From: Candidatus Omnitrophota bacterium
GTDB taxonomy: Bacteria > Omnitrophota > Gorgyraeia > Zapsychrales > Zapsychraceae
DNA length: 64,000 nt
Direction of reading: 5' to 3'
Assembly (NCBI GenBank): GCA_015233405.1
Contig: JADFXT010000010.1
Span: 41,578 to 105,577 of the forward strand
A model generated the notes under the pieces. It searched no databases. It worked only from the letters and a program-made list of their open reading frames with translations, and was not told the DNA's origin. Positions 17,287 through 52,612 of the stretch are shown piece after piece. The stretch's first letter is position 1. The number at the start of each line of letters is the position of its first letter. Position numbers and translations under genes: made by a program.

Positions 17287-17313
17287 AAGTGGCCATCCCT
17301 CGTTTTTTTTGTT

Positions 17314-17390
17314 GTCATCCCCGCGAAGGCGGGGATCCAGGGTCCGCTGGTTCTGTGCAATTCTGGATTCCCGCTTGCGCGGGAATGACA
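17314..17390. repeat. Double-hairpin palindromic element, copy A (GTCATCCCCGC..GCGGGGATCCAG ... CTGGATTCCCGC..GCGGGAATGACA)
   Basis: Two perfect GC-rich hairpins. It lies between the addA-like and addB-like genes. A spurious track ORF (17200-17391, MSFPRKRESR...) is its translation. Confidence 0.85.
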
Positions 17391-17445
17391 AATAAATAAG
17401 GGGAGAATAATAGAGAAATAATGGAAATAGTAATGAGGAAACTAA

Positions 17446-20351: not shown

Positions 20352-21821
20352 ATGAAAAAAATAATTGTTATGCTCTGGGTGTTGGCTTCTATTATCGTTT
20401 ATGTTCCGTCGGCGGGATGGGCGGCGGATTTCCGTGATTCCGTGGTCAAGGTCTTTACGACGGCCAATCCGCTAGATTATGTCCGTCCCTGGCAATCGAA
20501 GGGGATTGAATCCAAGAGCGGTTCGGGTTGCATCATCAAAGGAAACCGTATTTTGACCAATGCCCATGTCATCAGCGACCAGACATTCATTCAGGTCAAA
20601 AAATATAACAGCCCCAAGAAATATACGGCAAGACTTTTTGCGGTGGCGCATCAGTGCGACTTGGCGATTTTAGAGGTGGATAATCCGGAATTTTTTAAAG
20701 ACACTTTGCCGCTCGAATTAGGCGGGCTTCCTTCGCTGCAGGACACGGTCCATGTGATCGGGTTTCCCGAGGGAGGCGATAAAGTTTCCATTACTCAAGG
20801 CGTTGTTTCGAGAATCGAGATGACGCAATATTCCCATAGCTTAATGACCCTTTTGGCGGTTCAAATTGACGCGGCGATTAATCCCGGTAATAGCGGTGGG
20901 CCGGTCATCAAAGACGATAAGCTCATCGGCATTGCCATGCAGGGCATGCAAAACGCCCAGAATATCGGCTATATCATTCCGGTGCCGGTCATCCAACATT
21001 TCCTTAAGGATGTCAATGACGGACAACTGGACGGGTTTCCTCAATTAGGAATCCAGTTCGCCGATACCGAAAGCCGGTCTCTTCGCAAATATTATAAGGT
21101 CAGTGAAAATCAAGGCGGGGCGCTGGTGGTCAATGTCTTGCCATTCTCTCCGTCGGAAGGGAAGTTATATCCGGACGATGTTGTTTTATCTATTGATGGC
21201 GTTGATATCGGAGAAGATGGAACGTATGCGTTTCGCCAGGACGAGCGGTTGTATTTATCAGAAATTGTTCTAGAAAAAATGATCGGCGATACGGTCAAGG
21301 TGCGCGTTTTAAGAAATGGAAAAGAACAGATCATCCCGATCAAATTAACATCTTTTAGGCCGTTGGTCCCGTATCCTTTTGCTTACGGCAAGGCGCAATA
21401 TTATATTTTCGGAGGGCTTGCGTTTACCGTTCTTACCACGGACCTATTAATGAATTGGAACAATCCTTATCAGGCGCCGGAAAATTTTATTTATTATTTT
21501 CTGGGCAAGGGGTCTTTAAATAAGGAACGGAAAAAAGAGCGCGTTGTTTTGCTGGGAGTTTTGCCGGATGATGTGAACATCGGTTATCATACCGACCACA
21601 TGGAAGTGATCGAAAAGGTCAACGGACATGATTTTAGCTCTTTTGAGGAATTTGTGAAGTTGGTCAATAAAAAAGAAGGCCCGTTCACGGTTTTTGAGAC
21701 CGACGGTGAATATAAAATGATTCTGGATAATAATGGAATCGATAAAGCCAACGAAGAAATTTTAAAACGCAATAGTGTCCCCGCCGCATATTCAGAAGAA
21801 GTCGCGAAGTGGATGAAGTAG
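20352..21821 (+). CDS. Trypsin-like serine protease with PDZ domain (Deg/HtrA family, S1C)
   Basis: Signal peptide. Catalytic His context ILTNAHVI, an Asp in CDLAIL, and Ser in GNSGGPV. A PDZ-like region follows. Confidence 0.9.
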   Translation: MKKIIVMLWVLASIIVYVPSAGWAADFRDSVVKVFTTANPLDYVRPWQSKGIESKSGSGCIIKGNRILTNAHVISDQTFIQVKKYNSPKKYTARLFAVAHQCDLAILEVDNPEFFKDTLPLELGGLPSLQDTVHVIGFPEGGDKVSITQGVVSRIEMTQYSHSLMTLLAVQIDAAINPGNSGGPVIKDDKLIGIAMQGMQNAQNIGYIIPVPVIQHFLKDVNDGQLDGFPQLGIQFADTESRSLRKYYKVSENQGGALVVNVLPFSPSEGKLYPDDVVLSIDGVDIGEDGTYAFRQDERLYLSEIVLEKMIGDTVKVRVLRNGKEQIIPIKLTSFRPLVPYPFAYGKAQYYIFGGLAFTVLTTDLLMNWNNPYQAPENFIYYFLGKGSLNKERKKERVVLLGVLPDDVNIGYHTDHMEVIEKVNGHDFSSFEEFVKLVNKKEGPFTVFETDGEYKMILDNNGIDKANEEILKRNSVPAAYSEEVAKWMK

Positions 21822-22193: not shown

Positions 22194-25100
22194 ATGACTT
22201 TGGGGACGCCAATCTACAATAAAAGGATATTTAAGGTAATCACCTTAAGCGTATTAATAAGCTTTACGTTTAATTGCGTGATTCCCCCGCAGTTTGCCTC
22301 TGCCCAAACCGCTCCTGTTTTACCAGCCCAGCAACTTATTACACTCACAGACGCCTATTCTCCGGTTGTTATGAAAGGTTTGAAACTTTATCCGGATAAC
22401 CCGCTTAAGTTTGATTTTATTTTAGACAAAGGCGAAGCCTTTGCTCCAAATGACCCTGCTCGGCCCACGGCAGAGCAAGAGTCACAATTAAAAGAAGAAG
22501 CCACTCGTCTTATTAAATATTTTCTGGCGTCTTTAACAACTCCAGAAAAAGATATGTGGGTCAACTTAAACCCCAAAGAGCCGGACCGGATTGTCCCCCA
22601 GAAATTCGGTGAGACGGAAATGGGCCGTGACCTTTTGGCGCAGGATTATTTACTCAAGCAGATGACTGCTTCCTTGATGCATCCCGATGGAGACGTCGGC
22701 AAAAAGTTTTGGAGTAAGATTTATCAGCAGGCTTATGAGAAATTCGGCACCACTGATGTCCCGGTGGATACCTTAAACAAAGTTTGGATTGTTCCGGAGA
22801 AAGCTGTCGTGTATGAGAATCAGAACACGGCATTTGTTGTCCAGGCAAAACTGAAGGTGATGTTGGAGGAGGATTATGAAGCGTTAGAACAGACAAAAGA
22901 CCATAGACAAGAGACTATAGACCAGCCTTCGGCTGAAAAAAAGTCTAGGGTCTCTGGTCTATCGTCTATGGTCATTCGTCAAATTATCCTTCCCGTCCTT
23001 GAGAAAGAAGTCAATGAAGGCAAAAATTTCGCACAGTTGCGGCAGGTTTACCATTCCTTGATCCTTGCCACATGGTTTAAACGGAATTTAAAGGAAAGTT
23101 TGTTAGGGCGTAAGTATGTGGACCAAAGCAAAACTCCAGGCGTGAATATTGAGGACAAGAACGAAAAATTTAAGATCTATGACCGATACCTTGAGGCGTT
23201 TAAAAAAGGCGCGTATAACTATATTAAAGAAGAATACGACCCTGCGACCCAGGCTATTGTTCCCAAAAAATATTTCTCCGGCGGTATCACGGCGCTTAAC
23301 CTCGACAGTGCCATGACGGTTACGCATAACCAAAGCCTCGCGAAAACATTGTTAACTGCTTTGCTGATTACCGTTGGGGTGAATCTTTTTGTCGGCTGTG
23401 AGACCCAACCGAATTATAACCAGCGTCACTCAAAAACCACGCATCAGGTGCGACAAAAACCCGTACGCATAAATCATACAATTCCCCAAGCGCAGCCGGT
23501 AGCGACGGATAGTGTCGTGAGCGAATTTTTGTGGTCCCAGCCGACCGCGGATTCCTTGAACCTTTATGAACAGAAATTTCGGAGTCAAAATCCAAATTTC
23601 GCGAATCAATCTCTTGACCAACAAGTGGTCTCATTTGTGGAATTTATTAAATCCCCGACGGGGTTGGGAGTTTCTTATTCGATGGCTTTGACAAGAACGG
23701 AAGAGCTGGCGCAGCAAGGAGGGAATCTGGATTCTGTTGTGGCGACAAAGCAGGCCGTTTGTTTGGGTTTTACGCGGTTAATATATTTTTTGGGGAAAAA
23801 ATTGGGTTTGCCAAATCAGATATATTCCGTCGAAGGGCAGAAACATGTTATTAATGTTTTTTCTTTATTAAGAAAAACGGAAGACGGTCAGTCTCAAGAT
23901 GGTTATGCGCTTATCGTTGACGCTTCGACGAATAAATCGGGAGGGTTTATCAGGACGGACGTATTTAAGTTTGATGAAAAATATGGAAAGAACGGGGATG
24001 CTTATGCGTTAAGACCAGGCCAACAATTGCCCATGGATAATTATAATTTTAATGCGGCGGGCAATGTCCGATATGAAATCATAAAACCGTTTGAACCTGG
24101 CGCCTATAATCTGACGGAAGCTTTGGCGCGGGTGCATAAAGATCAAGAGAATGTTCAGCAAATATTTTCTGAAGCGAGCAAGTGCTTTGAAAATAGGCAA
24201 TATCCTGAAGCCATTGCCAAATATCAAGCGGCTATTCCCCTGGTTGAAGCCCTCAGATCTCGTTTGGTGGAAAAATCGTGGTTATTTTCTTCAATTATAA
24301 AGAATTTTCAAGAGGTGGTTCGTTCTCTGGATGAAATGAGAGAGAATGCTTCAACCAATATTTCTGCCGCCGAGCATAATCAGCAGAATGCCGGATATGC
24401 CCAGAATTCTTCGCAGTCGCAAAACACGATGAGTATCACTCTTGAATCTGAACAAGACAAGCAGGACTTTCAGGAAATATCAGTTAAGAAACAAGAAATA
24501 GTTGCTTTGATTAATACAGGAGTCCGTTTCGCAGAAAATGGAAAATATCGGGAATCCGCCGGGTATTTTAGTAAGGCTATCGGAATAAGCAGAAGTTTGG
24601 AACAATTGGGTTTGGCGAAAAAATATCCTGATATGTTGGGTCCCCTTCGTCAGACAGCGGAAAGAAATTTGGAACAGGTTAAAAATCTCGGAGGATTAAG
24701 CCAATATACGCCATCTTCGCAAACTTTTCGAGATGCCGCGCGGTATGCGCAAAGAAATATTCAAAATCCGCAAGACATAGACGCCGCCATGATGACGAAG
24801 TGGGTGAGTGCTGTTGCCTTCGCCGGAGCGCTCGCTTTTATGAATATGCAGCCGGCAACGGCGCAAAATGTCAATTTGGCCGGGGTCATGGGTTCGCAGA
24901 TTGCCACGAGTGCAGTAGCTCGGCAAGCTGTAAGTCCTGCGGAACTTGATACTCTTTTTGTAGGGCTTTCTAAAGGGGACCTAGCCGCCTATTCTAAATT
25001 AATGAATCTTGCTGGCACAAAAAATCCTTCTGTTATATCTGGCTTACTGAATCAAGCTTCGCGGGGAAGTATTGATGCTATAGGAATTTTGGGTCATCAT

Positions 25101-28100
25101 GCGACATCGATTTCTGGAATTAAAGAGGGATTAAAAAATGTTAATCCTCAGCCTCTTCTCGACGCTGATCCTGAGGGAAGTAAGAGAACCGTTGATGCTT
25201 TGTACACACTAGCGCTTTATGATAATGCCAAGGCTTTGTTTGTTTTGGTTCATTTAGCCACTCAGAAAGTCAATACGCTTGCGGCAGAGGCTTTGAAGCA
25301 ACTTTCGTTTCAAGAGGGTCAGGGGATTATGGCTCAAGAGGCGATAAAAAATATTGATCTTAAGCCGCTCATTGAGAAGGCGAGTTATGGAGATAAGAAA
25401 GCCATTGAGATGTTACGGCTCTTTGCCGAGACTGGAATTGTTCCGGCAGCTCGGTCAGCAATAAAAAATTTGAATGTTCAATTTTTTATTGATAAATCTT
25501 CCCAAGGCAGCGATGAAAATCTTGATTTTTTGATTTCTCTTGCCGATGCGGGTAATCTTGCCGCCCAGGAAGCTTTAAAGATTATGGACCCTCATGTTTT
25601 TGTGGAAAAAGTATCTCCAAACAATCCTGGATCAATATATTCCTTAGAACAACTTGCGTTAAATCAGAATCAAATAGCGTTATCAGCGATTAATCTTTTT
25701 GCCCGTCAAGGTTATAAAGAAGCGACGACTTCTTTGCAGCTCATCGTTGGTAGTATTAACGAACTGCACGGTTCTGCGGATAGCATACGTTTTGCAATTG
25801 TCAATAACTCTAGTCCTGTGGATCTTTATACGATGATCGTTTCCGCTCAGGATGAGGTTTTGGCGTTTCCGTCTACGTTTACAGGGCTTTTTAACCGGAT
25901 GATGGAAGGGATGAAAGCGCAGGGCATAAGCATAAGCGGCGACGGGATTCTTAATCAGGCTAATTATTATAAATTTAGAACGTTTTTTAAGCTTGCAGTA
26001 AATTTTAACCGGCTCAATGATTTCTTAGGAACGCTGCCTTCTGAGGAAGAAAAGACTGCTTTGCTCGAGAAATTTGTCAAAGGATTGGATAAAGAAAAAG
26101 ATGTTTTAGCTCAGGCCACGGTGGTAGCGGATGTTTTTGGAATGATAAAAACAGATGCGACGCTTTTTCCTCTGATGCGGCAAATGGTCAAAACTGAATT
26201 TGAGCGGACTCTTCAAGATGGATCTAACCGTTATGCAGAGGTCATTTATGGTTTGCTAACGATATTGTTTGCGCAAAATACTGATATCAATGATTCTTTG
26301 TTTAAAAGAGTAGCTGACGATTTCCAATTCCCCGATGTCAGCGTACTTCATCAAGCAGATTTATTCGATGCGAATGGCATCTTTCGACAAGTCCAGTATT
26401 TTTATGAAGATGAAGATGGGGATGCTTCTTTTAAGAATCTTTTGAATACCTATAAAAATAAGCCGAATTGGAAAATTATTGATTTTTTCAATTATATTCT
26501 TATCAAAGGAACGTTAAAAGGCCGGACAATCGAAATTTATGCCAATAAACCTTTTTTGGACTCAGCGGACCAAACGACCAATGCCCAAAATGAGCTAGAT
26601 AATTTTATTCAAAGAGAAGGGCTTGGTGTTTATATGGCGATTCACCGTGGGCATAGTTATCATGTGCAAAAAACCATCGATCGATTAGGATCTTCTCTTA
26701 AATTTGTCTTTTTAGGATCTTGCGGCGGATCCAATCGCATGAACGATGTGTTAAAAAAATCTCCGGGCGCTCAAATTTTAGCGACAAAAGGCATCGGTAC
26801 CGCCACGATCAATGACCTTTTGTTAAAAATGATCAATGATTTGTTGTTAAGCGGACAAGATGTTAATTGGCATGCTTTTCGATCCAATCTGGCAAAGAAA
26901 GAAGAATTCAAACGTGCTGCGGAGTTTATTCATTATATATTCCCGGATGAAAACACCGGATTTCTTTTTATCAGAGCTTATATGGAACTGTTGAAGCGTT
27001 TTGGTCTCGAGTATCCTATTGAGGGAATAGATTTCAACAAGTTAAATCGTGATCATTTTAATAAGGTCGCGCGATATGTGGAGAATGAAATTAAGTATAA
27101 TCAAGAACAAGGCCCCGTCATCGTTTGGACGCAAGAGCCTGACTCTGCACAAAAGAAAAACAGCAATGTCCCCGCAGCCTCTAATCAAATCAGCAACTCA
27201 GATTACCAGGCTATTGTAGCCCTGATCAATTCTAATTCTCTTGATTACAGCAGTAATCCGGTCTTAAACCCAAATGACCCGACGAGATTGAGTGTCGTTA
27301 TCAACGTGATTTCCGATCTGGCATTGAATCATCCTGATGCTCAAGTCAGATATAAAGCTTTGAATATGTGGAGGTATTTGTCGGAGAAATATCCGAATAA
27401 TGCTCCCCTGCAGTCCCCCCAATTACAAAATGCCGGCGGAATTCAAGGCGGTGACCATGCGATGATGGCAAGCCGATTGAAGACAGTCCTGAAAATGTCG
27501 TCTTTGGTCCTTATGTCCTCCTTACCGATGTGTTTTAATTTTCAAGGAAAAATAGCAACCAGTTCTGCCGTTTTTAATCCACCGCCCGCGGTTCTCATGG
27601 AAGAAAATAGGCTTGCTGCGGCGATCAAATCTGCGGATATGGGCACGCTTCACTATTCTCAACAAATAACCGACGCCCATACGTCATGGCTTATGAGCAA
27701 AAAAGATACTAGCGGTCGGCCGTATGTTTCTATCTGGAAAGAAAAGTCCGACGGTATTCTTAGTGATTATAAAGCAGGCCGGATGAGCGCGGACAGTGCC
27801 GCCGAAGCACAGAGGCAGTTGATGGACCAAATAAGCAAAAAGGTCAAAAGCTGGATGGGCCATAATACAACTACTGTTGGTTTGGATAAAGCCATAGTAA
27901 AGAATACAATTGCGAAATCAAAGTTTTCTCAAGTCGGTCTAAATAGCATCGCGATTTTAGAGAGGTTACTTAAAAATGATATTTTAGAAAATGTTTCGTC
28001 AACAGAGGTGCGTTTAAAATCAAATAATGACCTCAGCAGAGATGCTGTTCTGAAAATTGTAGGTCAAAATAATATTGATCAAGTTTGGAGTATTTTATTA

Positions 28101-31100
28101 CAGTCCTTCGAAGCAGGCGATTGCCTGACGCATACTGAGAACGCATTTGCTATCGTCCACGGTGATTTAGGCTATCCGATTCAGTTTGTGCATGTGACGC
28201 AGGAGCAAGATGGACATCCTACGGAGCATTTTGTTCCTTTGCTTACGACCCTTGATGGCAGAAATGTTTATTTGGAGTTCACATCGCCGTCGGTCAGCCC
28301 AAGGTTTGTCTTGGAAAAGGCGTACACTTTTACGCCCACGTCTGAGGGCATTGTCGGGATGCTTAAGGATCCGAATAGAGAAGGCTTGTCTCGTTATGCA
28401 AAAATAACGATCATTTCGACGCAACGATTTATCGCGAGTAGATATTTTCTTATAGGTCAAGCCGAGTATCTTGCCGGACTGAATGAAGAGAATCAGATGC
28501 ATTTTGTCAACGCTGAGTCCAATTTTAAACAATCGATTGCAACCGATCCGACTTTTGCTGAAGCCCATTACTATCTTGGTTTGGTCCAAAAGAATTCTTT
28601 TCGGTATGAAGCCGCCATCCGCAGCCTCACCAAAGCCATTAACCTTGACCCGACCAATGCCAATTATTATCGCGAGAGAGGTTCGGCTTATGATAGGTTA
28701 TGGCAGCATGAGAAAGCTTTGCGTGATTTGAATAAAGCCCTTCAAATTAATCCCAATGATAAAGAGGCTATAAAGCTATCGGATGAAATAGAGTCGAGAA
28801 ACAATAAAAAGCAATCTTTTCAATACAATATAGACACATTAAAAGCCCTTGCCCGTCGAGGAAGTTCCACGGCCACAGCCTTGCTGGCCGGTGAGATCGA
28901 TTGGAATAATTATGGTATTCCTGCGGCGTTGGCTTTAGCCGGTATAAATTTTGACCAGGTTGCCAGAGAATCCCAAAGATCGTCGTCACCCACTTATGAG
29001 GTCGGCAACGCCAGAGAAACTGTGAATGATTATTTACAGGGTCCCGATGCCGCCATGATGGCTCGCGGGGATTCTTTGACGAAGAAAGAAGCTGCGAGTA
29101 TTTTAAAGAAAATTACAGCGGCTTATCGTGCAGGAGATCGTCTAGAGAATGAAACTTTAGGAGAATATCTTAACAGGATCTTACAGACCAGGGAGTTTTA
29201 TCGTTATGTTGCCGCACATCCTTTGAGCACACGCATTCAAAGTTTCTTGAAGGAGCCTAAGAAGTCTTTAAAAGAAGCCGGATGGGGACTCACCATGTCC
29301 TTAGTGAAGGCGACCATGCCGGTTGATGATCCGACGATCGTTTATATTCTACGAGATAATGCTCAACTATTCTTGTCTCAGGTGAAATCAAATATTTTTA
29401 TGTGGTATGCGTTTTTAGCGCTCTCCGTGAATAACGGAAAAGCAAAGTTAAAAAAATTGCCTAACAAGAAAAATGAGATTCCCAACGGAAAAGATGCCGA
29501 TAGAGCGATGATGACAAGAGGGTTCCGGAATCTTTTCGTTCCTTTTGCTTTTGTTGCGGCAGCAACGGCTCCGGTGTTATTGAATCCGTCGATCACGTCG
29601 GCAGAAGAAATGCAAAAATCAGGTTCGACCTTAAATGAAGATGCCATACTCGCGAATGATGGAATCCCCATTGGGATTAAGGCGATGGAAGAGCTTAAGG
29701 GTGCATTTAACGCCACTTCGCCTGATTATACAACCATCTCAGTTCTTAACTCTCCCCAAAATTACAACAAGGTTTTGAGGATCCTTATCATGCAGGTCAT
29801 GCGCAAACACCAGCCGAATTCTCCTCAGTGGCAAAGGGCGTTTGATATTGTAAGGTACATGTCTGGGCAGGATTCTCTGGCCATTGGCTTGGCGCTTTCG
29901 AAAGTTTTATCGAGCGAAAATACAACTAATGCTGGCGCATCTGTCCAAACGCCTAGAGCTCTTTCTTTGGAAGACCAAAAGGTCGCCGATGTTATTAAGG
30001 ATTTGGCCCTTCGGTTTAAGTCATCTGCCTCGACGGTAGATGATTTTACCGCTCTAGTGATGTCGTGGAAAGATAAGGGGGACTCATTAAAATTATTTAT
30101 GAGCGCCCGACGCAAGGAAATGGATAGTCTTAGAAAAGACATCGATGCCGGTAAACCTGAAGCTCAAGAGGCGGCAAGAGATATTGCTCTTAAAATAAGG
30201 CTTAAAACGATTGCGGAATTTTTCCATGATGTGGATGTTGTTGGCATCGAGGAAGCCATGTTGTTTGGCGCTGCGACGTGCCATACGTTAGCCGAAATGA
30301 ATTATATTCTTCTTCGGGCCGTTGGATTCAAGGAAGACGAGGTTTCATTTGTCGCGCTTAGATCCGGAGTCCTTCATTATTTTCATTGGTTCTGTATGGT
30401 CAGGTTTCAAGATCAGAATAAGGCTTTTATCACAGATGCCGCCTTTGGTAAAACCACACCCATGTTTACTGTTCAGGATGCTTACGATATTTCTTCCGAC
30501 GGTGGTTTGATCCTCAAATCAGACAGAACGAACATTCCAATGGAGGTGCAGACTTACCCGAATATGATGCCTTTAAGACTCGAGGATTTCATCAATGAAG
30601 GGGGTGATGTTTATACCGGCAGGGAGTTTATAACTATTGATGGAAAGTATAAATTCGACATTGCCATAAAATATTTTACGCGGGCCATTGAAGCGAATCC
30701 TCATTCCGCTGAGGCCTACATGTGGAGGGCCAAGGCTTATCTCGGACTTGCTGGTAACGATCGCGATTTACAAATGAAAGCCAGGACCGATCTTCTTAAG
30801 ACCATCGAAATAAACTACCGCTTGATTCCAAGGGTCAGGGATTTATTAAGTCCTTATGTGTGGAATTGGACTGCGTTTTTATTTGTAGGTCATGATTCGA
30901 GCTTTCCTTCTGATTCAGTCAAAGACATCGATAGTTCGCTGGCCCAAGGCGAATTAGCCATGAACGTCGGCGACAATCTTAAAGCCGTTGGATTTTTCCA
31001 AAGTGTTCTTAAGAATGTTGCGGAATTAAAACAGTCCAACCCGCAGCTCACAGACGAGCAGCGTGTTTTATTGAATGGGCTTGCGAATGAAGCGCTGGCA

Positions 31101-32099
31101 CATGTAGAATGGATGAAAAGATATCATATAAGTATTTCTTCTGATGGGAAAATGATGTTTCATCCGCAAAAGCCTGTGAAAGTCAAAGGCAAGAAAAGCT
31201 CCGACGGGGCGATGATAACGAAGGCGTTACATTTAACAGAAGGGCAAGAGATCACTATTCCCTATCAAGGAAAAACGGTTAAGCTCATTCCCGTAAGGAT
31301 TTCGGATTATGATATCGTTGTGGCAAAGGGCAAAGTGCTGGCCACTCCAGGGGCTTTTAAATTATGGATAGAGGGTAAAGGTATTATTGAGAATAGTATT
31401 TTTACTTTCCAGGAGAAAGCGGATGCGATATTAATTGAATCTTTCAAAATTAATACCAGTAATTATCAGGATACGGGCGATGGAATCGGCCGCGCCATCA
31501 TGGATGTTATCGTCGCTATCGGCAAGAGGGTGGAAGTGGATCAATCCGCTAATTACGGTTTGCTTCGGCTTCTTTCTTTTTATCAAGCGGACAATAGAAA
31601 AGTCACGTTTGACGGAAAAGAATTTCAGGATATCCATTGGTTTGAGGACTACGGTCCGATCAGAATCGTTATGTCGGATGGCCGGACTGCCAAGTTTGTT
31701 ATCAGTAGCGACGGTAAACATTTTGAATTTCAAACAGGAGACGGTAGCCAGGTGTCTTTGAGCATGCTTGAAGTTCTCAATCAAGACGGATATGTTCGTA
31801 TTCCGGGAATCACAACACCGTTTCAAGTTTATTTATCTAAAAAGATCGATAAAATAATCATTTCCGCGCCGACGGATGCAGCGATGAGCACTAGGACAAC
31901 AGACGTCGGTGGTATTGATTTAAATCCGGAAAATTTGAGCATTGAAAGTAAAGGCGAGAAGATAAAGTTTGATGCCAAAAAATTTGAGAATATGGAAATT
32001 GACGGCTTGACGCCGGTGATTTTTAATATGGTCCCGCTTGCCCCGGCACAGGTCGAGATGCTGTTAGGGTTTAAAGATGGTGAGCAAGGAAAGGTATAG
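22194..32099 (+). CDS. Giant modular protein G1 (3301 aa): signal/anchor, conserved N-domain, six variable modules (three transglutaminase-like plus TPR, one HEAT-like), conserved C-tail
   Basis: Uninterrupted 9.9-kb ORF with RBS AAGGGGGG and ATG 22194. The N-terminal region and the last roughly 70 aa are homologous to the 46919-52612 ORF. D-x-A-M junction Met codons lie at 23313, 24789, 27462, 29055, 29508, 31212 and 31884. TPR sequence example: AEAHYYLGLVQKNSFRYEAAIRSLTKAINLDPTNANYY. Confidence 0.85.
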   Translation: MTLGTPIYNKRIFKVITLSVLISFTFNCVIPPQFASAQTAPVLPAQQLITLTDAYSPVVMKGLKLYPDNPLKFDFILDKGEAFAPNDPARPTAEQESQLKEEATRLIKYFLASLTTPEKDMWVNLNPKEPDRIVPQKFGETEMGRDLLAQDYLLKQMTASLMHPDGDVGKKFWSKIYQQAYEKFGTTDVPVDTLNKVWIVPEKAVVYENQNTAFVVQAKLKVMLEEDYEALEQTKDHRQETIDQPSAEKKSRVSGLSSMVIRQIILPVLEKEVNEGKNFAQLRQVYHSLILATWFKRNLKESLLGRKYVDQSKTPGVNIEDKNEKFKIYDRYLEAFKKGAYNYIKEEYDPATQAIVPKKYFSGGITALNLDSAMTVTHNQSLAKTLLTALLITVGVNLFVGCETQPNYNQRHSKTTHQVRQKPVRINHTIPQAQPVATDSVVSEFLWSQPTADSLNLYEQKFRSQNPNFANQSLDQQVVSFVEFIKSPTGLGVSYSMALTRTEELAQQGGNLDSVVATKQAVCLGFTRLIYFLGKKLGLPNQIYSVEGQKHVINVFSLLRKTEDGQSQDGYALIVDASTNKSGGFIRTDVFKFDEKYGKNGDAYALRPGQQLPMDNYNFNAAGNVRYEIIKPFEPGAYNLTEALARVHKDQENVQQIFSEASKCFENRQYPEAIAKYQAAIPLVEALRSRLVEKSWLFSSIIKNFQEVVRSLDEMRENASTNISAAEHNQQNAGYAQNSSQSQNTMSITLESEQDKQDFQEISVKKQEIVALINTGVRFAENGKYRESAGYFSKAIGISRSLEQLGLAKKYPDMLGPLRQTAERNLEQVKNLGGLSQYTPSSQTFRDAARYAQRNIQNPQDIDAAMMTKWVSAVAFAGALAFMNMQPATAQNVNLAGVMGSQIATSAVARQAVSPAELDTLFVGLSKGDLAAYSKLMNLAGTKNPSVISGLLNQASRGSIDAIGILGHHATSISGIKEGLKNVNPQPLLDADPEGSKRTVDALYTLALYDNAKALFVLVHLATQKVNTLAAEALKQLSFQEGQGIMAQEAIKNIDLKPLIEKASYGDKKAIEMLRLFAETGIVPAARSAIKNLNVQFFIDKSSQGSDENLDFLISLADAGNLAAQEALKIMDPHVFVEKVSPNNPGSIYSLEQLALNQNQIALSAINLFARQGYKEATTSLQLIVGSINELHGSADSIRFAIVNNSSPVDLYTMIVSAQDEVLAFPSTFTGLFNRMMEGMKAQGISISGDGILNQANYYKFRTFFKLAVNFNRLNDFLGTLPSEEEKTALLEKFVKGLDKEKDVLAQATVVADVFGMIKTDATLFPLMRQMVKTEFERTLQDGSNRYAEVIYGLLTILFAQNTDINDSLFKRVADDFQFPDVSVLHQADLFDANGIFRQVQYFYEDEDGDASFKNLLNTYKNKPNWKIIDFFNYILIKGTLKGRTIEIYANKPFLDSADQTTNAQNELDNFIQREGLGVYMAIHRGHSYHVQKTIDRLGSSLKFVFLGSCGGSNRMNDVLKKSPGAQILATKGIGTATINDLLLKMINDLLLSGQDVNWHAFRSNLAKKEEFKRAAEFIHYIFPDENTGFLFIRAYMELLKRFGLEYPIEGIDFNKLNRDHFNKVARYVENEIKYNQEQGPVIVWTQEPDSAQKKNSNVPAASNQISNSDYQAIVALINSNSLDYSSNPVLNPNDPTRLSVVINVISDLALNHPDAQVRYKALNMWRYLSEKYPNNAPLQSPQLQNAGGIQGGDHAMMASRLKTVLKMSSLVLMSSLPMCFNFQGKIATSSAVFNPPPAVLMEENRLAAAIKSADMGTLHYSQQITDAHTSWLMSKKDTSGRPYVSIWKEKSDGILSDYKAGRMSADSAAEAQRQLMDQISKKVKSWMGHNTTTVGLDKAIVKNTIAKSKFSQVGLNSIAILERLLKNDILENVSSTEVRLKSNNDLSRDAVLKIVGQNNIDQVWSILLQSFEAGDCLTHTENAFAIVHGDLGYPIQFVHVTQEQDGHPTEHFVPLLTTLDGRNVYLEFTSPSVSPRFVLEKAYTFTPTSEGIVGMLKDPNREGLSRYAKITIISTQRFIASRYFLIGQAEYLAGLNEENQMHFVNAESNFKQSIATDPTFAEAHYYLGLVQKNSFRYEAAIRSLTKAINLDPTNANYYRERGSAYDRLWQHEKALRDLNKALQINPNDKEAIKLSDEIESRNNKKQSFQYNIDTLKALARRGSSTATALLAGEIDWNNYGIPAALALAGINFDQVARESQRSSSPTYEVGNARETVNDYLQGPDAAMMARGDSLTKKEAASILKKITAAYRAGDRLENETLGEYLNRILQTREFYRYVAAHPLSTRIQSFLKEPKKSLKEAGWGLTMSLVKATMPVDDPTIVYILRDNAQLFLSQVKSNIFMWYAFLALSVNNGKAKLKKLPNKKNEIPNGKDADRAMMTRGFRNLFVPFAFVAAATAPVLLNPSITSAEEMQKSGSTLNEDAILANDGIPIGIKAMEELKGAFNATSPDYTTISVLNSPQNYNKVLRILIMQVMRKHQPNSPQWQRAFDIVRYMSGQDSLAIGLALSKVLSSENTTNAGASVQTPRALSLEDQKVADVIKDLALRFKSSASTVDDFTALVMSWKDKGDSLKLFMSARRKEMDSLRKDIDAGKPEAQEAARDIALKIRLKTIAEFFHDVDVVGIEEAMLFGAATCHTLAEMNYILLRAVGFKEDEVSFVALRSGVLHYFHWFCMVRFQDQNKAFITDAAFGKTTPMFTVQDAYDISSDGGLILKSDRTNIPMEVQTYPNMMPLRLEDFINEGGDVYTGREFITIDGKYKFDIAIKYFTRAIEANPHSAEAYMWRAKAYLGLAGNDRDLQMKARTDLLKTIEINYRLIPRVRDLLSPYVWNWTAFLFVGHDSSFPSDSVKDIDSSLAQGELAMNVGDNLKAVGFFQSVLKNVAELKQSNPQLTDEQRVLLNGLANEALAHVEWMKRYHISISSDGKMMFHPQKPVKVKGKKSSDGAMITKALHLTEGQEITIPYQGKTVKLIPVRISDYDIVVAKGKVLATPGAFKLWIEGKGIIENSIFTFQEKADAILIESFKINTSNYQDTGDGIGRAIMDVIVAIGKRVEVDQSANYGLLRLLSFYQADNRKVTFDGKEFQDIHWFEDYGPIRIVMSDGRTAKFVISSDGKHFEFQTGDGSQVSLSMLEVLNQDGYVRIPGITTPFQVYLSKKIDKIIISAPTDAAMSTRTTDVGGIDLNPENLSIESKGEKIKFDAKKFENMEIDGLTPVIFNMVPLAPAQVEMLLGFKDGEQGKV
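22899..22973. repeat. Heptad-periodic (TAGAC-type) palindromic element inserted in-frame in G1
   Basis: 75 bp (25 codons). Arms of catagac/aagagac/tatagac units and their complements surround a central hairpin cagcc-ttc-ggctg. Same family as 11297-11370. It encodes the linker DHRQETIDQPSAEKKSRVSGLSSMV. Confidence 0.7.
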
Positions 32100-41542: not shown

Positions 41543-41648
41543 CAAAAACTTTATAATATTAATGCCCCTGTTCTGATTTTTTTGAGAAAGACGGTATTGA
41601 AATCAGAACTAGGGGCATATGTTTCTCGAAAAGACTCAATGGAATTAT

Positions 41649-46816: not shown

Positions 46817-46918
46817 TAGTTTTTTCAATCCTAATTCCAACCTTAGAAATATTTGTTTTTTTCTGCCGTATATTCCATACTTATACTACTTAAATCAATC
46901 ATAAAAAAAGATATTTCT

Positions 46919-49900
46919 ATGATAAAAAGAACTTTATCTGCATTAATCCTTATAACTTTTATTACTACAGTTATTATGCCGCCGGGCTATGCCCAGAGCG
47001 TAACATTGCCAACTCCAGGTGTGATGGTCAATCCATCAGTAGCCTATGTCCCAGCACTGTTGCGTGGGATGACGCTACATAAGGACAATCCATTTCAGTT
47101 TGATTTTATCGTCGACAACGGCCAAAGCGGGCTTCAAGGCGAAGCATTAAAGAAAGAATCGCAGCGTTTGGTCAAATATTTCCTCGCATCCATGACCGTT
47201 CCGCAGAATGATTTGTGGGTAAACCTTTCTCCGGCTGAAAAGAATCGTATCGTCCCCGACGCGTTAGGCAAAACTGAATTAGGCCAGGATTTATTGGCTC
47301 AGGATTACATTTTAAAGCAACTGACTGCCACATTGATGTATCCGGAAGCGGAGTTAGGCAAGAAATTTTGGGATCGCATATATAAGGAAGCAAAAGAAAA
47401 ATACGGTGTCACTGATATTCCGACAGATACTTTTAATAAAGTCTGGATTCTGCCTGAATCCGCGACGATCTATGAAAACGGCGCGACGGTGTATGTGGTT
47501 GATGCAAAATTGAAGGTGATGTTGGACCAAGACTATCAAGCGATTTCGAAAACTGTAGGGGCGGGGTCTCCCCGCCCGGATGATGATGGGCGCGGGAACC
47601 GCGCCCCTACGAAGATCATTAAAGAAGTTATCCTTCCCGCCATCGAGAAAGAAGTAAACACCGGCAAAAATTTCGCTCCACTTCGCCAGATCTATCATTC
47701 GCTCATCTTAGCCAAGTGGTATAAAGAGAAAGTCCGCAACAGCATTCTTTCCAGCGCCTACATTAACCAGAACAAAGTCTCTGGTATCGACGAGAATAAT
47801 CCGAAAGCCAAAGAAGAAATTTACGCGCAGTACATGGAAGCCTACAAAAAGGGCGTCTATAACTATATGAAGGAAGAGTATGACCCCAAGACCCAACAGA
47901 TCACGCCTAAGAAATATTTCTCCGGCGGGTTTAAGGACCAGGCGATGACTATTAATCGGACAAATGAGATAAAAATAGTCGAAGCGTCGGTTGTGGGGAG
48001 CAATTACACCATTTCGCTACGCATAGACCCGCAAAAGAAGCATGGCGATTCGGCAATGTCTTCTAAACAAAAATCTGCGTCTGCTATTCCGGTTGTGTTA
48101 TTGGTTGGAAAGCCAGGGGCGGGGAAGACAAAAATAGGCATGCAAATCAGTAAAAAACTTGGGCCTAATGTGTTCCATCTGTCGATGGGAGAATTCATAA
48201 GGTCCCAGATGCCGCATAAAACGCCGCTCACCCATGAACAGCGTCGAGATATTTATAAGCGTTTGACGGAATACTTAAAAACTAAGCCGCATATATCTTT
48301 GTTTCTTTTTGATAATAATCCCTACGGCAGCGACTCCTATGACGCTTTACAGGATTTCCTAAATCAAGGGAACTTCGAACTGGTGAAGGTCATCAATATT
48401 GATGTGACGGATGAAGCGGCTCTAAGCCGACAAGAGTCGAGAGGAAGGATAGATTCTATGGGAGTCTCTTTCCAGAATCGGCTGAATTATTACAATAATA
48501 ACCTCCAAAAAAATGTCCCTGACCAGATCAAGAAGTTCGCCCAAGAAGGCCTTGTTCAAAACATAGATAACAATGAAAATGATAAAGGAAAAAGCGCGTT
48601 GGTAACTCTTTTTGAAGCCCTTTCTCCTCTTGCGCTTGAGGGATGTGAAAGGCTTGTCCGTCGGATGATTCCTCAATTACAAGCGCTCATTGCATCAGAG
48701 CAGGCGGTTGTTGTTAATGAATTGGCGCAAGAAATCATGAAAGAAGGGCTGTCTAAACTAGAAGAAAGGCTCGCCTTAAAATATCCCGATGTTCTAAAAG
48801 AAAATTTGCTTGTGCTTGAGGCTGAACATATTATTGCTGATCTAAAAAAACCTGCTGACCATGCCATGACAAGTGACGTGAAGGCTTTACTGGAATCGGC
48901 AAAGATAGCTGATAACAGTACTCTAAAAAAGATTTACGACGAGCTTAACAAGATGCCTAATGGCGCAGCGAGGGCGATTTACGACATACTTTATAAGACG
49001 ACAAGCATGGATTTGGTAGAGGCCAATGATTTGGTTGAAGCATCCAAAATAGCCGCGAAAGAATTTTTTACTGGTTTTCAAAACTGGATGAATACCAAAG
49101 GCCAAGACCCTAAAAAGAAATTTATTTTGATGTTCGCTACAGGGAAAAGCCCGGAGATGGCGTATAAATTTATTGAGGATTATCTGCACCAGGATTGGAC
49201 AAATGCCGACGTACGCAAAGGTTTAATAGCCCAAGGCATTGACCCGGATCGAAAACCAGACATGACCAGGGTCATTTCGTTTCATCTGGATACAATCATA
49301 GCTCAAAAAAGAGGAGAATATTTTGCCTTTTCCAATATTGTCAATAAATGGGATGACAGTTTCGGAATTCCTAAAGACCAGCGTAATTTCTTTCATGGTG
49401 ATGTGATTTTATCCGATGATGGAAAATCTGTGCGGCAGATGACCGAAGAAGAGTTTTCAAAATTGCGTCAAGATATCCAGAAAAATGGGCTTAAAGTCAA
49501 AGATTATGTCGCCGGAAAACTGGATAAAGAAAAATTTGGCGTCCAATATGCGTTCTTTGAGGCGCTGAAGCTTCAGAATAAGATCATGACGGAAAAATTA
49601 AAAAGTTTAGGCGGCGCGGACATTGTTTTTGGCAGTACTGGCCCGGCCAATGACGGTTCAGGGCATATTGCTTTCGTGGAATCGGAGAGCTTAGATGAAA
49701 TGGAAGCTTTTATAGCAGAGGCGAATCATCATATTTTAGCCGGACAGGCTTCTCAAGGTCGTGGTTATCAATCCCTGATGGGCAAGACAGGGATTGCTTC
49801 GTTCTCGCTCTCAGACATTACGCAGAACAAAGATGCAAAATTGATCATGATCGTCCTCGACAATAAAAAAAGGACCACGGTTAAAGAGGCCATCGAAGGA

Positions 49901-52612
49901 AATAATATGGCGATGCCTGTAGGAGCGCTTCGGAATGCAAAAGGAGTTTTTATCGTCGATAAAGGCTCGGCAGAAGATCTTCTTATCAATAAATATCCTT
50001 GGGATTTCCGGTTAATTGATGAGTCCGGCTGGACGGATTCTTTGCGCAAAGACTTTTTTGTCCGTGTGGCGCTTCGAAGTGGGAAAAAAGTGAAAGATCT
50101 GACCCGGGAAGATTTTCTTAATTTTGAACAGGACAAAACACATCCTTTAATCCTTTGGGCTCGGCGTCAAAACTTAAACGTGTTACTTAAAAAAGAAGGT
50201 TTTGACAAACAAAAAATGCGCGTTGCCGTAGAGACAAAATCAAATACTATTCTAACAGAAAATTTAGCAGAAAAACTCTGGGGTCAAGACTACGTTAATG
50301 AGTTTGAGGCTGCCAAGAAACATTTGTCCGATTTAGAAAAAAAAGCCCGTCAATCTACAGAAGACCTTTCTAGCCAAATCAATGAAGCTCGTCGGGAAGT
50401 TCGCCGTTTAAAAAAGACAATTATTGCTTTCGATCCTCATCCCGATGACCGGTTCTTAGCTGACCCGAACGCGTATCGACACTTAATTGCCCAGGGGCAT
50501 CGCGTCATTGCCATTATGGCGACACCGGGCCTCTCAGGTGTTGGAGACGCTTTTACTCTTTCCATTCTGTCTCATATTTTATCTTGGGATGAAGAAAAAT
50601 TTAACGCGGCAAAAAATACAGATAGAAAAACACTCTCTCAAAAATTATTGCAGGTCGCTCAACAAAGAAATTTTGAAAAACAGAATCTGCCCGATTATGA
50701 AATATGGAGCCGGATGACTTTTGAGGAAAAAGATTTACGGGCCGGGTTATTGCTTAATTACCTTGCGAACAAAATTTATCCCACTTTGACAGATTCCGAT
50801 AAGCAGATGTGCCCTCAGGGCTTTGAAACCGTTGCTGATTTTAAACAGTTTTTTAATATCATAAAAAACGTCATTGATGCCCGGCAGGATTGGGGTTCTG
50901 CTTCTGTTAAAATAATGGATGAAATAAAAAGCGCAATTCGTGTCATTGAAGAAAAAACTGCCATGCTTTCGTGGGGCATTGCTTATGAGGATATTTACGA
51001 TCCCATTAAGCCAAGCTGGTATTCTTCCGTCGGAAGGCTGGGGACAGCCAGCCAAAAAGATATTGAAAAGTTCATCGCGCTCCTTAAACAGGCAGGCCAG
51101 CTCGATGAGGGCGGACGTATTGACGCTGTTTTCGGTAACGGAGAAGGGTTCTCCGACTGGGAAGCGCATGCGTCTACGGAAGCCACGATGATTGCATCCT
51201 TATTTGCTCTAGACAATGAAGGCCTTTTAGACCATAAAACTTTTCGTTATATGACTTATGCCGGAGTTTGGGAAAGGATCAGGACTGAACAATCCAATCT
51301 CACCATTGCTTATTCCAAAAAAGAAAAAGAAAACCTGCACACAAAATTTTCTCAGCTTTATCCGTCTCAATCTCCGAATATGGCGCCGGATGCTTCTTAT
51401 GATAGATTAATGTTATTCCCTCAATCCGTCGAGTTAAACGGAATCGCTACGAAAGAGGAAATCCTGTCTTTAATAGATCCCGACGATGAAATAGCAAAAA
51501 TATTGATAGAAGGGGGTATGGCCCTCAACTTTAGGATCCACGATTTCTTTGATCCGGCAACACGAGAATTTTTAAAGACAAAAGTCACCGAATTGGAGCG
51601 CCTCAGAGATGATCTTAAGCGGACCAGCGCTCCGGCTTTGTATGGCAAACCTCCTTTACCGTCCGTCTTGACACGACGAGAGAAAGAGAAAAATGCTATC
51701 TTAGAGAAAATTTATCCGAAGCCAGACGACCCGTGGACGCAATTGGAAGGGGTTAATGACCGGTATTGGGAGAAATTTGCCGGGGAATTTGAAAAGGCCA
51801 AAGTAGCGGATACGTTCCCTGTAGATTTTTTAAATAAAATTTTGCGTAAGGTTATCAAAGATGCTCCGGTCCTGGAGATTGCCGCCGGAAGCGGCCGGGC
51901 CATGGTGCAAATGCGTGACCAAGGATATGATAACATCACCGGACTCGATATTTCTGCGGAAGCCCGTGAGATGGCCTTAAAGAAAGGCTTTGCCCCGGAT
52001 AAATTTTTAGTTTCCAATATTAAGAAAGATGAGATCAATGGGACCTATGATGCTATTGTTGCCAATGATATCTTTCTCTATTTTACTCCTCGAGAATTGG
52101 ATCTTGTGATGAGAAAAATACAAAATGCCTTAAAGCCTGGTGGCCGGCTTGGGTTTCGTTGGGCCGCGCAAAACGAAAAACAACCTCCGTTTAAACGTAA
52201 AGATAAAGGGACCGAGAAAGACCGATGGGTCGTTCATGCATCACAGCAAATGCTCAAAGATATCTTGGCTTTGTATGGCTTTAATCTTGTCGAGGAGCCC
52301 AAGATAATTCCTGAACCGATTTATGGCGGAAATGCCTTTGTGGATTATTGGTATGTCGTCGCTGAGAAAACATCCGACGCGGCGCTTATAACAGACAAAA
52401 AAGTCGGTGGGATCGATATGAATAATATTAATTTAAAAGGTAACGATAAAGGCGTGTTTCAATTTGATCCGTCGATTATGAAGAAATTCGAAGACATGGA
52501 CATCGACGGGTTTGTGCCGGTAATCATTGAATTAACGCCGGTAACCAGTATTCTTCCTCTGCTAGGTTTATCAGCGCAGAAGGAAGAAAAAGTAGCTTTA
52601 TCTCACCGTTAA
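46919..52612 (+). CDS. Giant modular protein G2 (about 1897 aa): signal/anchor, conserved N-domain, P-loop kinase-like, NagB/6PGL-like, PIG-L/LmbE-like and SAM-methyltransferase modules, conserved C-tail
   Basis: Start moved to ATG 46919 (MIKRTLSALILITFITTVIMPPGYAQS). P-loop GKPGAGKT (about 48106-48132). FATGKSP...GHIAFVES (about 49110-49680). PHPDD (about 50437-50451). VLEIAAGSGR...LKPGGRL (about 51869-52150). C-tail VGGIDMN...PVIIELTPV...LLGL. Confidence 0.85.
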   Translation: MIKRTLSALILITFITTVIMPPGYAQSVTLPTPGVMVNPSVAYVPALLRGMTLHKDNPFQFDFIVDNGQSGLQGEALKKESQRLVKYFLASMTVPQNDLWVNLSPAEKNRIVPDALGKTELGQDLLAQDYILKQLTATLMYPEAELGKKFWDRIYKEAKEKYGVTDIPTDTFNKVWILPESATIYENGATVYVVDAKLKVMLDQDYQAISKTVGAGSPRPDDDGRGNRAPTKIIKEVILPAIEKEVNTGKNFAPLRQIYHSLILAKWYKEKVRNSILSSAYINQNKVSGIDENNPKAKEEIYAQYMEAYKKGVYNYMKEEYDPKTQQITPKKYFSGGFKDQAMTINRTNEIKIVEASVVGSNYTISLRIDPQKKHGDSAMSSKQKSASAIPVVLLVGKPGAGKTKIGMQISKKLGPNVFHLSMGEFIRSQMPHKTPLTHEQRRDIYKRLTEYLKTKPHISLFLFDNNPYGSDSYDALQDFLNQGNFELVKVINIDVTDEAALSRQESRGRIDSMGVSFQNRLNYYNNNLQKNVPDQIKKFAQEGLVQNIDNNENDKGKSALVTLFEALSPLALEGCERLVRRMIPQLQALIASEQAVVVNELAQEIMKEGLSKLEERLALKYPDVLKENLLVLEAEHIIADLKKPADHAMTSDVKALLESAKIADNSTLKKIYDELNKMPNGAARAIYDILYKTTSMDLVEANDLVEASKIAAKEFFTGFQNWMNTKGQDPKKKFILMFATGKSPEMAYKFIEDYLHQDWTNADVRKGLIAQGIDPDRKPDMTRVISFHLDTIIAQKRGEYFAFSNIVNKWDDSFGIPKDQRNFFHGDVILSDDGKSVRQMTEEEFSKLRQDIQKNGLKVKDYVAGKLDKEKFGVQYAFFEALKLQNKIMTEKLKSLGGADIVFGSTGPANDGSGHIAFVESESLDEMEAFIAEANHHILAGQASQGRGYQSLMGKTGIASFSLSDITQNKDAKLIMIVLDNKKRTTVKEAIEGNNMAMPVGALRNAKGVFIVDKGSAEDLLINKYPWDFRLIDESGWTDSLRKDFFVRVALRSGKKVKDLTREDFLNFEQDKTHPLILWARRQNLNVLLKKEGFDKQKMRVAVETKSNTILTENLAEKLWGQDYVNEFEAAKKHLSDLEKKARQSTEDLSSQINEARREVRRLKKTIIAFDPHPDDRFLADPNAYRHLIAQGHRVIAIMATPGLSGVGDAFTLSILSHILSWDEEKFNAAKNTDRKTLSQKLLQVAQQRNFEKQNLPDYEIWSRMTFEEKDLRAGLLLNYLANKIYPTLTDSDKQMCPQGFETVADFKQFFNIIKNVIDARQDWGSASVKIMDEIKSAIRVIEEKTAMLSWGIAYEDIYDPIKPSWYSSVGRLGTASQKDIEKFIALLKQAGQLDEGGRIDAVFGNGEGFSDWEAHASTEATMIASLFALDNEGLLDHKTFRYMTYAGVWERIRTEQSNLTIAYSKKEKENLHTKFSQLYPSQSPNMAPDASYDRLMLFPQSVELNGIATKEEILSLIDPDDEIAKILIEGGMALNFRIHDFFDPATREFLKTKVTELERLRDDLKRTSAPALYGKPPLPSVLTRREKEKNAILEKIYPKPDDPWTQLEGVNDRYWEKFAGEFEKAKVADTFPVDFLNKILRKVIKDAPVLEIAAGSGRAMVQMRDQGYDNITGLDISAEAREMALKKGFAPDKFLVSNIKKDEINGTYDAIVANDIFLYFTPRELDLVMRKIQNALKPGGRLGFRWAAQNEKQPPFKRKDKGTEKDRWVVHASQQMLKDILALYGFNLVEEPKIIPEPIYGGNAFVDYWYVVAEKTSDAALITDKKVGGIDMNNINLKGNDKGVFQFDPSIMKKFEDMDIDGFVPVIIELTPVTSILPLLGLSAQKEEKVALSHR
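47555..47610. repeat. GC-rich double-hairpin palindromic element inside the G2 coding sequence
   Basis: Outer 9-bp inverted repeat gtaggggcg/cgcccctac. Inner hairpins gggcgggg-tct-ccccgccc and gggcgcgg-gaa-ccgcgccc. It encodes VGAGSPRPDDDGRGNRAPT, at the linker position equivalent to the G1 insertion. Confidence 0.75.

Follow-up and report, generated by a model that had tools for sequence, protein, structure and literature searches.

We analyzed a 64,000-nt stretch of a Candidatus Omnitrophota bacterium genome (assembly GCA_015233405.1, contig JADFXT010000010.1, forward-strand positions 41,578 to 105,577), here called the window, in which all gene and module coordinates below are given. Our subject is G1, a single long open reading frame (ORF) whose product is divided by seven short D-x-A-M linkers into modules M0 to M7 (Table 1). 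The protein has a 100% identical counterpart, P0001, which GenBank lists as 'MAG: tetratricopeptide repeat protein [Candidatus Omnitrophica bacterium]' (MAG, metagenome-assembled genome). A preliminary description of this DNA had proposed that M1, M3, and M5 each hold a transglutaminase-like domain, with Cys, His, and an acidic residue in that order, followed by tetratricopeptide repeat (TPR)-like helices. The peptides that it quoted are all present in G1 where it had placed them, and the module borders that it drew fall exactly on the Met of the seven D-x-A-M motifs (aa 371, 863, 1754, 2285, 2436, 3004, and 3228). When G1 was scanned with curated models (Pfam, NCBIfam), TPR repeats alone were recognized, at aa ~2090-2200 in M3 and at aa 2820-2850 in M5.

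Table 1. Modules, linkers, and predicted sites of G1, with other genes of the window (aa, residues of G1)
Feature	Window position	Strand	Description	Basis
G1	22194..32099	+	single ORF, 3,301 aa; giant modular protein of Candidatus Omnitrophica	ORF list, translation
M0	22194..23303	+	N-terminal signal-peptide-like stretch (hydrophobic aa 15-31) and conserved ~330-aa family domain	identity to other giants' N-termini
Linker D-S-A-M	23304..23315	+	aa 371-374	
M1	23313..24788	+	signal-peptide-like start with lipobox LFVGC (aa 386-402), transglutaminase-like core, degenerate TPR-like helices	hydropathy 2.21
M1 hydrophobic stretch	23349-23399		aa 386-402	
M1 predicted catalytic core	23724..24023	+	aa 511-610; C523, H551, D576	external family HMM, i-E 5.4e-11
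Linker D-A-A-M	24780..24791	+	aa 863-866	
M2	24789..27461	+	helical N-terminal part and conserved ~400-aa C-terminal domain; not a transglutaminase module	
M2 C-terminal domain	25746-26993		aa ~1185-1600	
Linker D-H-A-M	27453..27464	+	aa 1754-1757	
M3	27462..29054	+	N-terminal part: weak signal-like start (aa 1765-1781), helical subdomain (aa 1805-1903), ~70-aa insertion	
M3 hydrophobic stretch	27486-27536		aa 1765-1781	
M3, remainder		+	transglutaminase-like core aa 1976-2090 (C1977, H2012, E2028), then three TPRs (aa ~2090-2200)	
Linker D-A-A-M	29046..29057	+	aa 2285-2288	
M4	29055..29507	+	151-aa module, no Pfam match	
Linker D-R-A-M	29499..29510	+	aa 2436-2439	
M5	29508..31211	+	start: signal-peptide-like stretch (aa 2447-2463)	hydropathy
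M5 hydrophobic stretch	29532-29582		aa 2447-2463	
M5 domain		+	helical subdomain and transglutaminase-like core, aa 2593-2767 (C2696, H2731, D2748)	family HMM, AlphaFold model
M5 end		+	TPR-like helix pairs, aa ~2796-2898	model; TPR_16 at aa 2820-2850
Linker D-G-A-M	31203..31214	+	aa 3004-3007	
M6	31212..31883	+	~224-aa module, no Pfam match	
Linker D-A-A-M	31875..31886	+	aa 3228-3231	
M7	31884..32096	+	conserved ~70-aa C-terminal tail (GGIDLNPENL...)	C-termini of family giants
G2	46916..52612	+	second family giant, about 1,900 aa	M0-like N-domain, 49% identity
HtrA/DegP-like gene	20352-21821	+	serine protease with PDZ domains	373 nt upstream of G1
AddA/AddB-like pair	14140-20244	+	UvrD-type helicase with PD-(D/E)XK nuclease domain, then second PD-(D/E)XK protein	

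Pairwise BLAST aligned M3 and M5 co-linearly (E 0.003 and 1.7e-4, in a tiny database), and each of the two also matched the module at aa 2555-2780 of P0013, a 3,938-aa paralogue of G1 encoded on the same contig. M1 gave no match in direct pairwise BLAST. Marginal scores between M3 and M5 and the blindness of BLAST to M1 are what would be expected if the Cys/His/Asp strings were chance motifs in unrelated helical sequence and the modules were not homologous. A profile of three sequences (M3, M5, and P0013), used in an exhaustive search of 1.84 billion representative proteins, yielded 146 proteins at E<=1e-3, of which 52 reached <=1e-10, a family of 146 representative clusters at 50% identity. 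We also built an external family hidden Markov model (HMM) from 129 outside domains, with no G1 sequence among them, and searched it against G1 and 119 other giant proteins. The HMM matched M1 at aa 511-610 (independent E value, i-E, 5.4e-11), M3 at aa 1805-1903 (2e-11) and aa 1976-2090 (5e-8), and M5 at aa 2593-2767 (2.7e-16); elsewhere in the 120 giants it matched P0013 alone, and nothing else scored below 0.1. Because an HMM free of G1 sequence matches all three modules, we regard them as homologous, and the common family profile links M1, M3, and M5 to one another as the preliminary description had required of its proposal. The external profile matches G1 in exactly these three regions (5e-11 to 3e-16) and nowhere else in the protein; together with the outcome of the three-sequence profile search and a confident model of M5 with the expected fold (see below), this leads us to give practically no credence to chance motifs. 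Judged by these profile matches, M1, M3, and M5 belong to a single domain family, within which they diverged long ago. They differ in build: M1 is without the N-terminal helical 'WKD' subdomain that M3, M5, and the family have, and in M3 the ~70-aa insertion separates this subdomain from the core.

The proposed triad residues occupy the conserved columns of the family. Among 129 members, Cys is found in 123/129, His in 124/129, and Asp in 112/129, with Glu in 7/129 (conservation of 95% for Cys, 96% for His, and 87% for Asp). The G1 residues C523/H551/D576 (M1), C1977/H2012/E2028 (M3), and C2696/H2731/D2748 (M5) lie in those columns, so that the ordered triad of the preliminary description is recovered in all three modules, with Glu as the acidic residue of M3. 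We modeled aa 2589-3006 of M5 with AlphaFold2 from a 73-sequence alignment. The model has a mean predicted local distance difference test (pLDDT) value of 79.6 and a predicted template modeling score (pTM) of 0.72, and most values exceed 90 over the first ~210 residues, where the helical subdomain and the core are located. By DSSP assignment, Cys108 of the model opens a helix (108-121), His143 stands just before a strand (144-150), and Asp160 ends a strand (155-160); helix pairs follow the core. In this model, the placement of Cys, His, and Asp is canonical for the transglutaminase/papain fold. When the model was compared with the Protein Data Bank (PDB) using Foldseek, the six top matches were all LapG chains, ahead of every TPR protein (E 2.6e-3 to 1.3e-2, probability 1.0, target-normalized TM 0.43-0.47). 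LapG is a bacterial transglutaminase-like cysteine proteinase (BTLCP) with a C-H-D triad (PMC3032545).

Searches at the sequence level pointed to the same superfamily. Sub-threshold matches to Transglut_core (PF01841) were obtained in 13/23 family members, all of them under the 23-bit cut-off (best E 1.1e-4), and among the same 23 there were one EDR1/CTR1/ARMC3 peptidase-like match and one Transglut_core2 match. Weak Pfam matches were also seen to Transglut_core on the P0013 module and to Acetyltransf_2 (PF00797) on M5 (E 0.15). The narrow M3/M5/P0013 profile gave only spurious helical matches against PDB sequences, and a broader profile was needed. With the family profile, the best PDB sequence match was GdmF (E 0.0043), which we take to be an arylamine-N-acetyltransferase homologue and whose Cys, His, and Asp align with those of the family; a 'transglutaminase-like domain' chain followed at E 0.4. 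The GdmF match and the trace of Acetyltransf_2 on M5 would suit enzymes of the arylamine N-acetyltransferase type, acyl-transferases or amide synthases with the same fold and triad. However, LapG was ahead in the structure search, and 13/23 members showed Transglut_core as against a single PF00797 match. Moreover, many stand-alone homologues begin with a hydrophobic N-terminus, 22/92 have a lipobox-like motif, and such exported proteins would presumably lack acyl-CoA donors. An acyl-transferase role for the G1 modules therefore seems to us very improbable. No single line of evidence on the fold is strong by database standards, but all of them agree in direction, and we conclude that the family core is a transglutaminase/papain fold with an ordered Cys-His-Asp(Glu) triad.

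The TPR-like helices that the preliminary description placed after each core differ in how clearly they can be recognized. They are clear in M3, where TPR_11, TPR_2, TPR_1, and TPR_17 score above the Pfam gathering thresholds at aa 2103-2200, and they are also borne out in M5, which has a TPR_16 stretch at aa 2820-2850, partial units, and, in the model, helix pairs. In M1, the signal is weak: Pfam finds no TPR there, and an HMM of the family-derived TPR unit gave 5.2 bits at aa 666-681 and -1.1 bits at aa 772-798, the positions quoted earlier. The NCBIfam matches on G1 were to TPR equivalogs only, all of them far below cut-off.

With the external HMM, the conserved triad columns, and the fold of M5 all bearing out a transglutaminase-like module in three copies, we consider it probable that G1 is a signal-peptide-bearing Omnitrophota giant holding three old transglutaminase-fold plus TPR modules, which are likely thiol peptide-bond enzymes. 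M1, M3, and M5 would then act as thiol-dependent enzymes on peptide bonds, a protease or isopeptidase being likelier than a protein cross-linker or an acyl-transferase, and their protein or peptide substrate would be bound by the TPR array. By analogy with LapG, which is a protease of the periplasm, they may act in the envelope or at the surface of a host or prey cell.

We also considered whether the modules could be silent pseudo-enzymes whose fold and TPRs are kept for binding, which would make G1 an adhesin-like or scaffold protein of the surface. SirB1/YchA of E. coli, the closest analogue in layout, is without Cys at the aligned position, Glu replaces Asp in M3, and M1 has lost the helical subdomain. 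Further, the G1 modules score only 25-52 bits on the family HMM as against 133 for P0013, suggesting relaxed constraint. On the other hand, Cys and His are retained in M1, M3, and M5 alike, and each has an acidic residue in the third position or next to it, although the modules are only about 20% identical overall; the family conserves the triad at 87-96%. Loss of catalysis is thus an alternative that we take seriously but find unlikely.

Several points weigh against the enzymatic interpretation. No transglutaminase-type curated model from Pfam or NCBIfam reaches threshold on any G1 module. M3 has Glu in the column that is Asp in the family, the Asp of M5 is one column off in some alignments, and the TPRs of M1 are so degenerate as to be hardly detectable. 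The evidence on triad placement comes from one model, that of M5, and the structural similarity of this model to LapG is only moderate (TM 0.43-0.47, E about 1e-2 to 1e-3). If G1 stays uncleaved, its internal signal-like stretches would be membrane anchors and the sidedness of the modules would alternate, and modules on the cytoplasmic side would suit an exported protease less well.

Most members of the family are stand-alone proteins of ~450 aa (range 380-600 aa), which are currently annotated only as 'TPR protein' and share one layout: the N-terminus is hydrophobic or of lipoprotein type and is followed by a helical subdomain (L.YS..A.DF..MV..WKD), the Cys...His...Asp core, and several TPRs. 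Named stand-alone homologues are few and come from Planctomycetota, including Sedimentisphaerales. In addition, four other Omnitrophota giants (P0121, P0125, P0128, and P0129) hold two or three copies of the module each, indicating that its multi-copy use is recurrent. These four have neither the M0 domain nor the M7 tail and show no D-x-A-M enrichment, so that giant proteins of two or more distinct kinds have acquired the module.

The absence of an obvious DNA repeat among the modules had earlier been read as a sign of old duplication or independent capture rather than recent expansion, and our comparisons fit this view. No nucleotide similarity was found between M1, M3, and M5 by blastn (best E about 0.9), and recent tandem duplication was rejected on this ground. 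Over 88 core columns, identity among the three modules is 19-21%, but it reaches 34-37% between M1 and several stand-alone proteins, 32-33% when M3 is compared with P0013 and with modules of other Omnitrophota giants, and 25-28% between M5 and stand-alone proteins. Because the siblings resemble each other less than they resemble outsiders, we favor independent capture or ancient divergence; the three modules would have been taken up, or have diverged, separately, and not been amplified recently.

The hydrophobic segments of G1 bear on what was captured. Strongly hydrophobic 17-mers occur at the N-terminal signal peptide and just after the D-x-A-M of M1, M3 (weak), and M5, and nowhere else in the protein. 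The hydrophobic stretch at the N-terminus of the stand-alone homologues stands in the same place, and the LFVGC lipobox that ends the M1 stretch is also found in the stand-alone proteins P0132 and P0144. Since M1, M3, and M5 each resemble a complete pre-protein, with its own Met and signal peptide, whole-gene capture appears the better explanation, and the evidence favors descent of each module from a whole stand-alone exported protein.

G1 belongs to a larger set of giant proteins. More than 1,300 proteins of 1,800-5,000 aa share only its first ~370 aa, at 43-65% identity, and carry varied cargo, including TIM (triose-phosphate isomerase), PGK (phosphoglycerate kinase), PGM (phosphoglucomutase), kinases, methyltransferases, and peptidases. 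M0 is 49-66% identical to the N-termini of 119/119 other giants listed, and the C-termini of 95/119 have M7 in common (aa 3231-3301 of G1, GGID[LM]N...). A scan of one genome per species found at least 514 M0 loci, several per genome; the loci returned were all from MAGs labeled Omnitrophota/Omnitrophica or 'uncultured Planctomycetales'. The M0 domain has no Pfam match, and its model (pLDDT 63) gave no credible PDB match. The window holds a second giant of this family, G2. It contains adenylate-kinase and methyltransferase modules, has three D-x-A-M motifs, and ends in an M7-like 'DAAL...GGIDMN' tail; it has no transglutaminase module, which within the 120 M0-sharing giants is confined to G1 and P0013. 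Thus G1 appears to follow the architecture of its family, with a conserved N-domain, gene-sized cargo split by D-x-A-M, and a conserved C-tail. In one member, P0063, a TIM module (aa 403-607) starts five residues past a D-K-A-M and aligns only from position 51/245 of the Pfam model, so that its N-terminal ~50 residues are seemingly missing or very diverged.

Among the cargo of G1, M2 had been described as carrying HEAT/armadillo-like repeats; we could not confirm this, as Pfam gives no family for M2 at E<=10. Its C-terminal domain is 35-39% identical to modules of P0002-P0004, and the motifs FANKP, HRGHSY, LGSCGG, and STKGTG are invariant across G1 and these three giants. There was no Pfam and no PDB sequence match to this ~400-aa domain, which may be a His/Cys hydrolase candidate.

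The linker motif itself is far more frequent than chance would give. G1 has seven D-x-A-M sites where about 0.35 are expected, and the 120 giants have 1.15 per 1000 aa as against an expected 0.105, an 11-fold enrichment with a median spacing of 330 aa in the family. Met is preferred 9.5-fold after D-x-A in the giants, and the 13,070 aa of other ORFs in the window contain no site. In three members, 15/15 sites fall between Pfam domains. A giant can do without the motif, as P0052 has none, and a site near the end of the N-domain is present in only 47/119. We examined 148 sites from 79 related loci (L001-L079) and the window at the codon level. The sites draw on both Asp codons and on each of the four Ala codons, so that D-x-A-M was rejected as a DNA site and the constraint is mainly on the peptide; the Ala codon is GCG or GCC in 83% of sites compared to 60% of all Ala codons in the same genes, a moderate synonymous bias beside the ATG. 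Internal translation starts were likewise rejected as the main reason for the Met, because the seven internal ATGs are without the AGGAG-like Shine-Dalgarno motif found before most real gene starts of the window.

We reasoned that D-x-A-M could mark the junctions of whole-gene cassettes throughout this Omnitrophota-wide family of polyprotein-like giants, and that G1 could be made as one chain and cut there, freeing pre-proteins that each have their own Met and signal peptide, a proposal that we put forward tentatively and hold to be rather improbable. Three of the seven G1 linkers read D-A-A-M, and this di-alanine makes the embedded LapG-like modules candidate linker proteases, as LapG cuts giant adhesins at di-alanine, PAAG or AAAG (PMC6890996). 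G1 would in that case be a self-processing polyprotein that releases its modules, an arrangement with which the Met and signal-like peptide at the start of modules, in the style of pre-proteins, and the position of linkers between domains would agree. Against this, the module occurs in only G1 and P0013 of the 120 giants, yet the motif is enriched across the set; other Omnitrophota giants with two or three module copies lack D-x-A-M, and the named stand-alone homologues are from Planctomycetota and not from Omnitrophota. Self-processing by the modules is accordingly most unlikely in our judgment, and the cutting of D-A-A-M by analogy with LapG is only a lead.

An HtrA/DegP-like serine protease gene lies upstream of G1, and such a gene precedes the giant in only 2/79 related loci, arguing against a general linkage between HtrA and the giants. 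The AddA/AddB-like pair was not found near related loci. Other neighbors include a DAO oxidoreductase and a flavodoxin-like protein. A conserved neighborhood was rejected, as the remaining neighbors do not recur except for response-regulator-like matches in 4/79 loci. PADLOC returned no defense-system match.

The catalytic fold proposed here is ordinary, and we place the enzyme in a known superfamily, as a new branch that has so far gone unannotated; less usual is the build of whole-gene modules jointed by D-x-A-M. The analysis defines a transglutaminase-fold plus TPR family unseen by our Pfam and NCBIfam scans, which occurs both as stand-alone proteins and, repeatedly, in multiple copies within Omnitrophota giants. 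As M1, M3, and M5 retain their own Met and signal-peptide-like start, G1 makes the anatomy of these giants readable. Were D-x-A-M to be a processing or docking site, the cutting of giant proteins would become directly testable, and cutting at the motif would amount to the processing of polyproteins at a defined motif in a bacterium.

Among known systems, the Transglut_core (PF01841) superfamily and the arylamine N-acetyltransferases, represented by GdmF, have Cys, His, and Asp in the same order and at the same secondary-structure positions as the G1 family. The family differs from Transglut_core in that all of its matches are below curated thresholds, consistent with a separate branch that our Pfam and NCBIfam scans did not recognize. 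The comparison with SirB1 in the preliminary description holds for layout and not for family membership. In E. coli YchA, a transglutaminase-like domain directly precedes TPR helices, as in G1 (Transglut_core2, PF13369, 150.9 bits; TPR_9, PF13371, 85.3 bits). In contrast, no PF13369 match is found in G1, only 1/23 family members reaches E 0.059, and hhalign of the family against YchA gave a probability of 9.8% over 37 columns, in the Cys-helix region only. YchA is also without Cys at the aligned position, there is no prfA-prmC-sirB2 neighborhood at G1, and the G1 family has an extra N-terminal helical subdomain, with many stand-alone members beginning in a hydrophobic, signal-like stretch.

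MARTX-type multi-effector toxins and viral polyproteins string gene-sized modules in one ORF with short recurring junction motifs, and the strung modules and recurring linker of G1 resemble them in this respect. Unlike MARTX toxins, G1 has no MARTX repeats and no CPD protease domain in Pfam and NCBIfam scans, and we know of no cleavage site that D-x-A-M matches. Closer to hand are the multi-enzyme giants described in Omnitrophota by West-Roberts et al. in 2023 (bioRxiv 10.1101/2023.11.21.568195) and by Nielsen & Lui in 2026 (bioRxiv 10.64898/2026.06.07.730766), which like G1 come from the same phylum, tile unrelated domains along long ORFs, and frequently have signal peptides or hydrophobic segments. 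The giants of Nielsen & Lui are >=10,000 aa, and those of West-Roberts et al. are likewise far longer than the 3,301 aa of G1. Cleavage of such giants after translation has been suspected, with the cleavage points unknown (West-Roberts et al., 10.1101/2023.11.21.568195). We found no description of the D-x-A-M motif and no mention of a transglutaminase in either preprint, that of Nielsen & Lui being also without the words 'linker' and 'cleavage', and our literature search found no paper joining Omnitrophota with 'polyprotein'.

LapG and the BTLCP group (Peptidase C93) provide the nearest structural comparison. The differences are that no sequence match to the BTLCP/DUF920 model was obtained, either among the 25 top families for the 23 members scanned (E<=1) or in the Pfam scans of G1, that LapG has no TPR array, that the G1 domain sits inside the giant rather than acting from outside, and that the window holds no LapD/LapA-type partner genes. 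The likeness lies in the best structural match of the M5 model and in the same order of the triad. The periplasmic location of LapG likewise parallels the signal-like starts of the G1 modules, and both would be tied to giant surface proteins.

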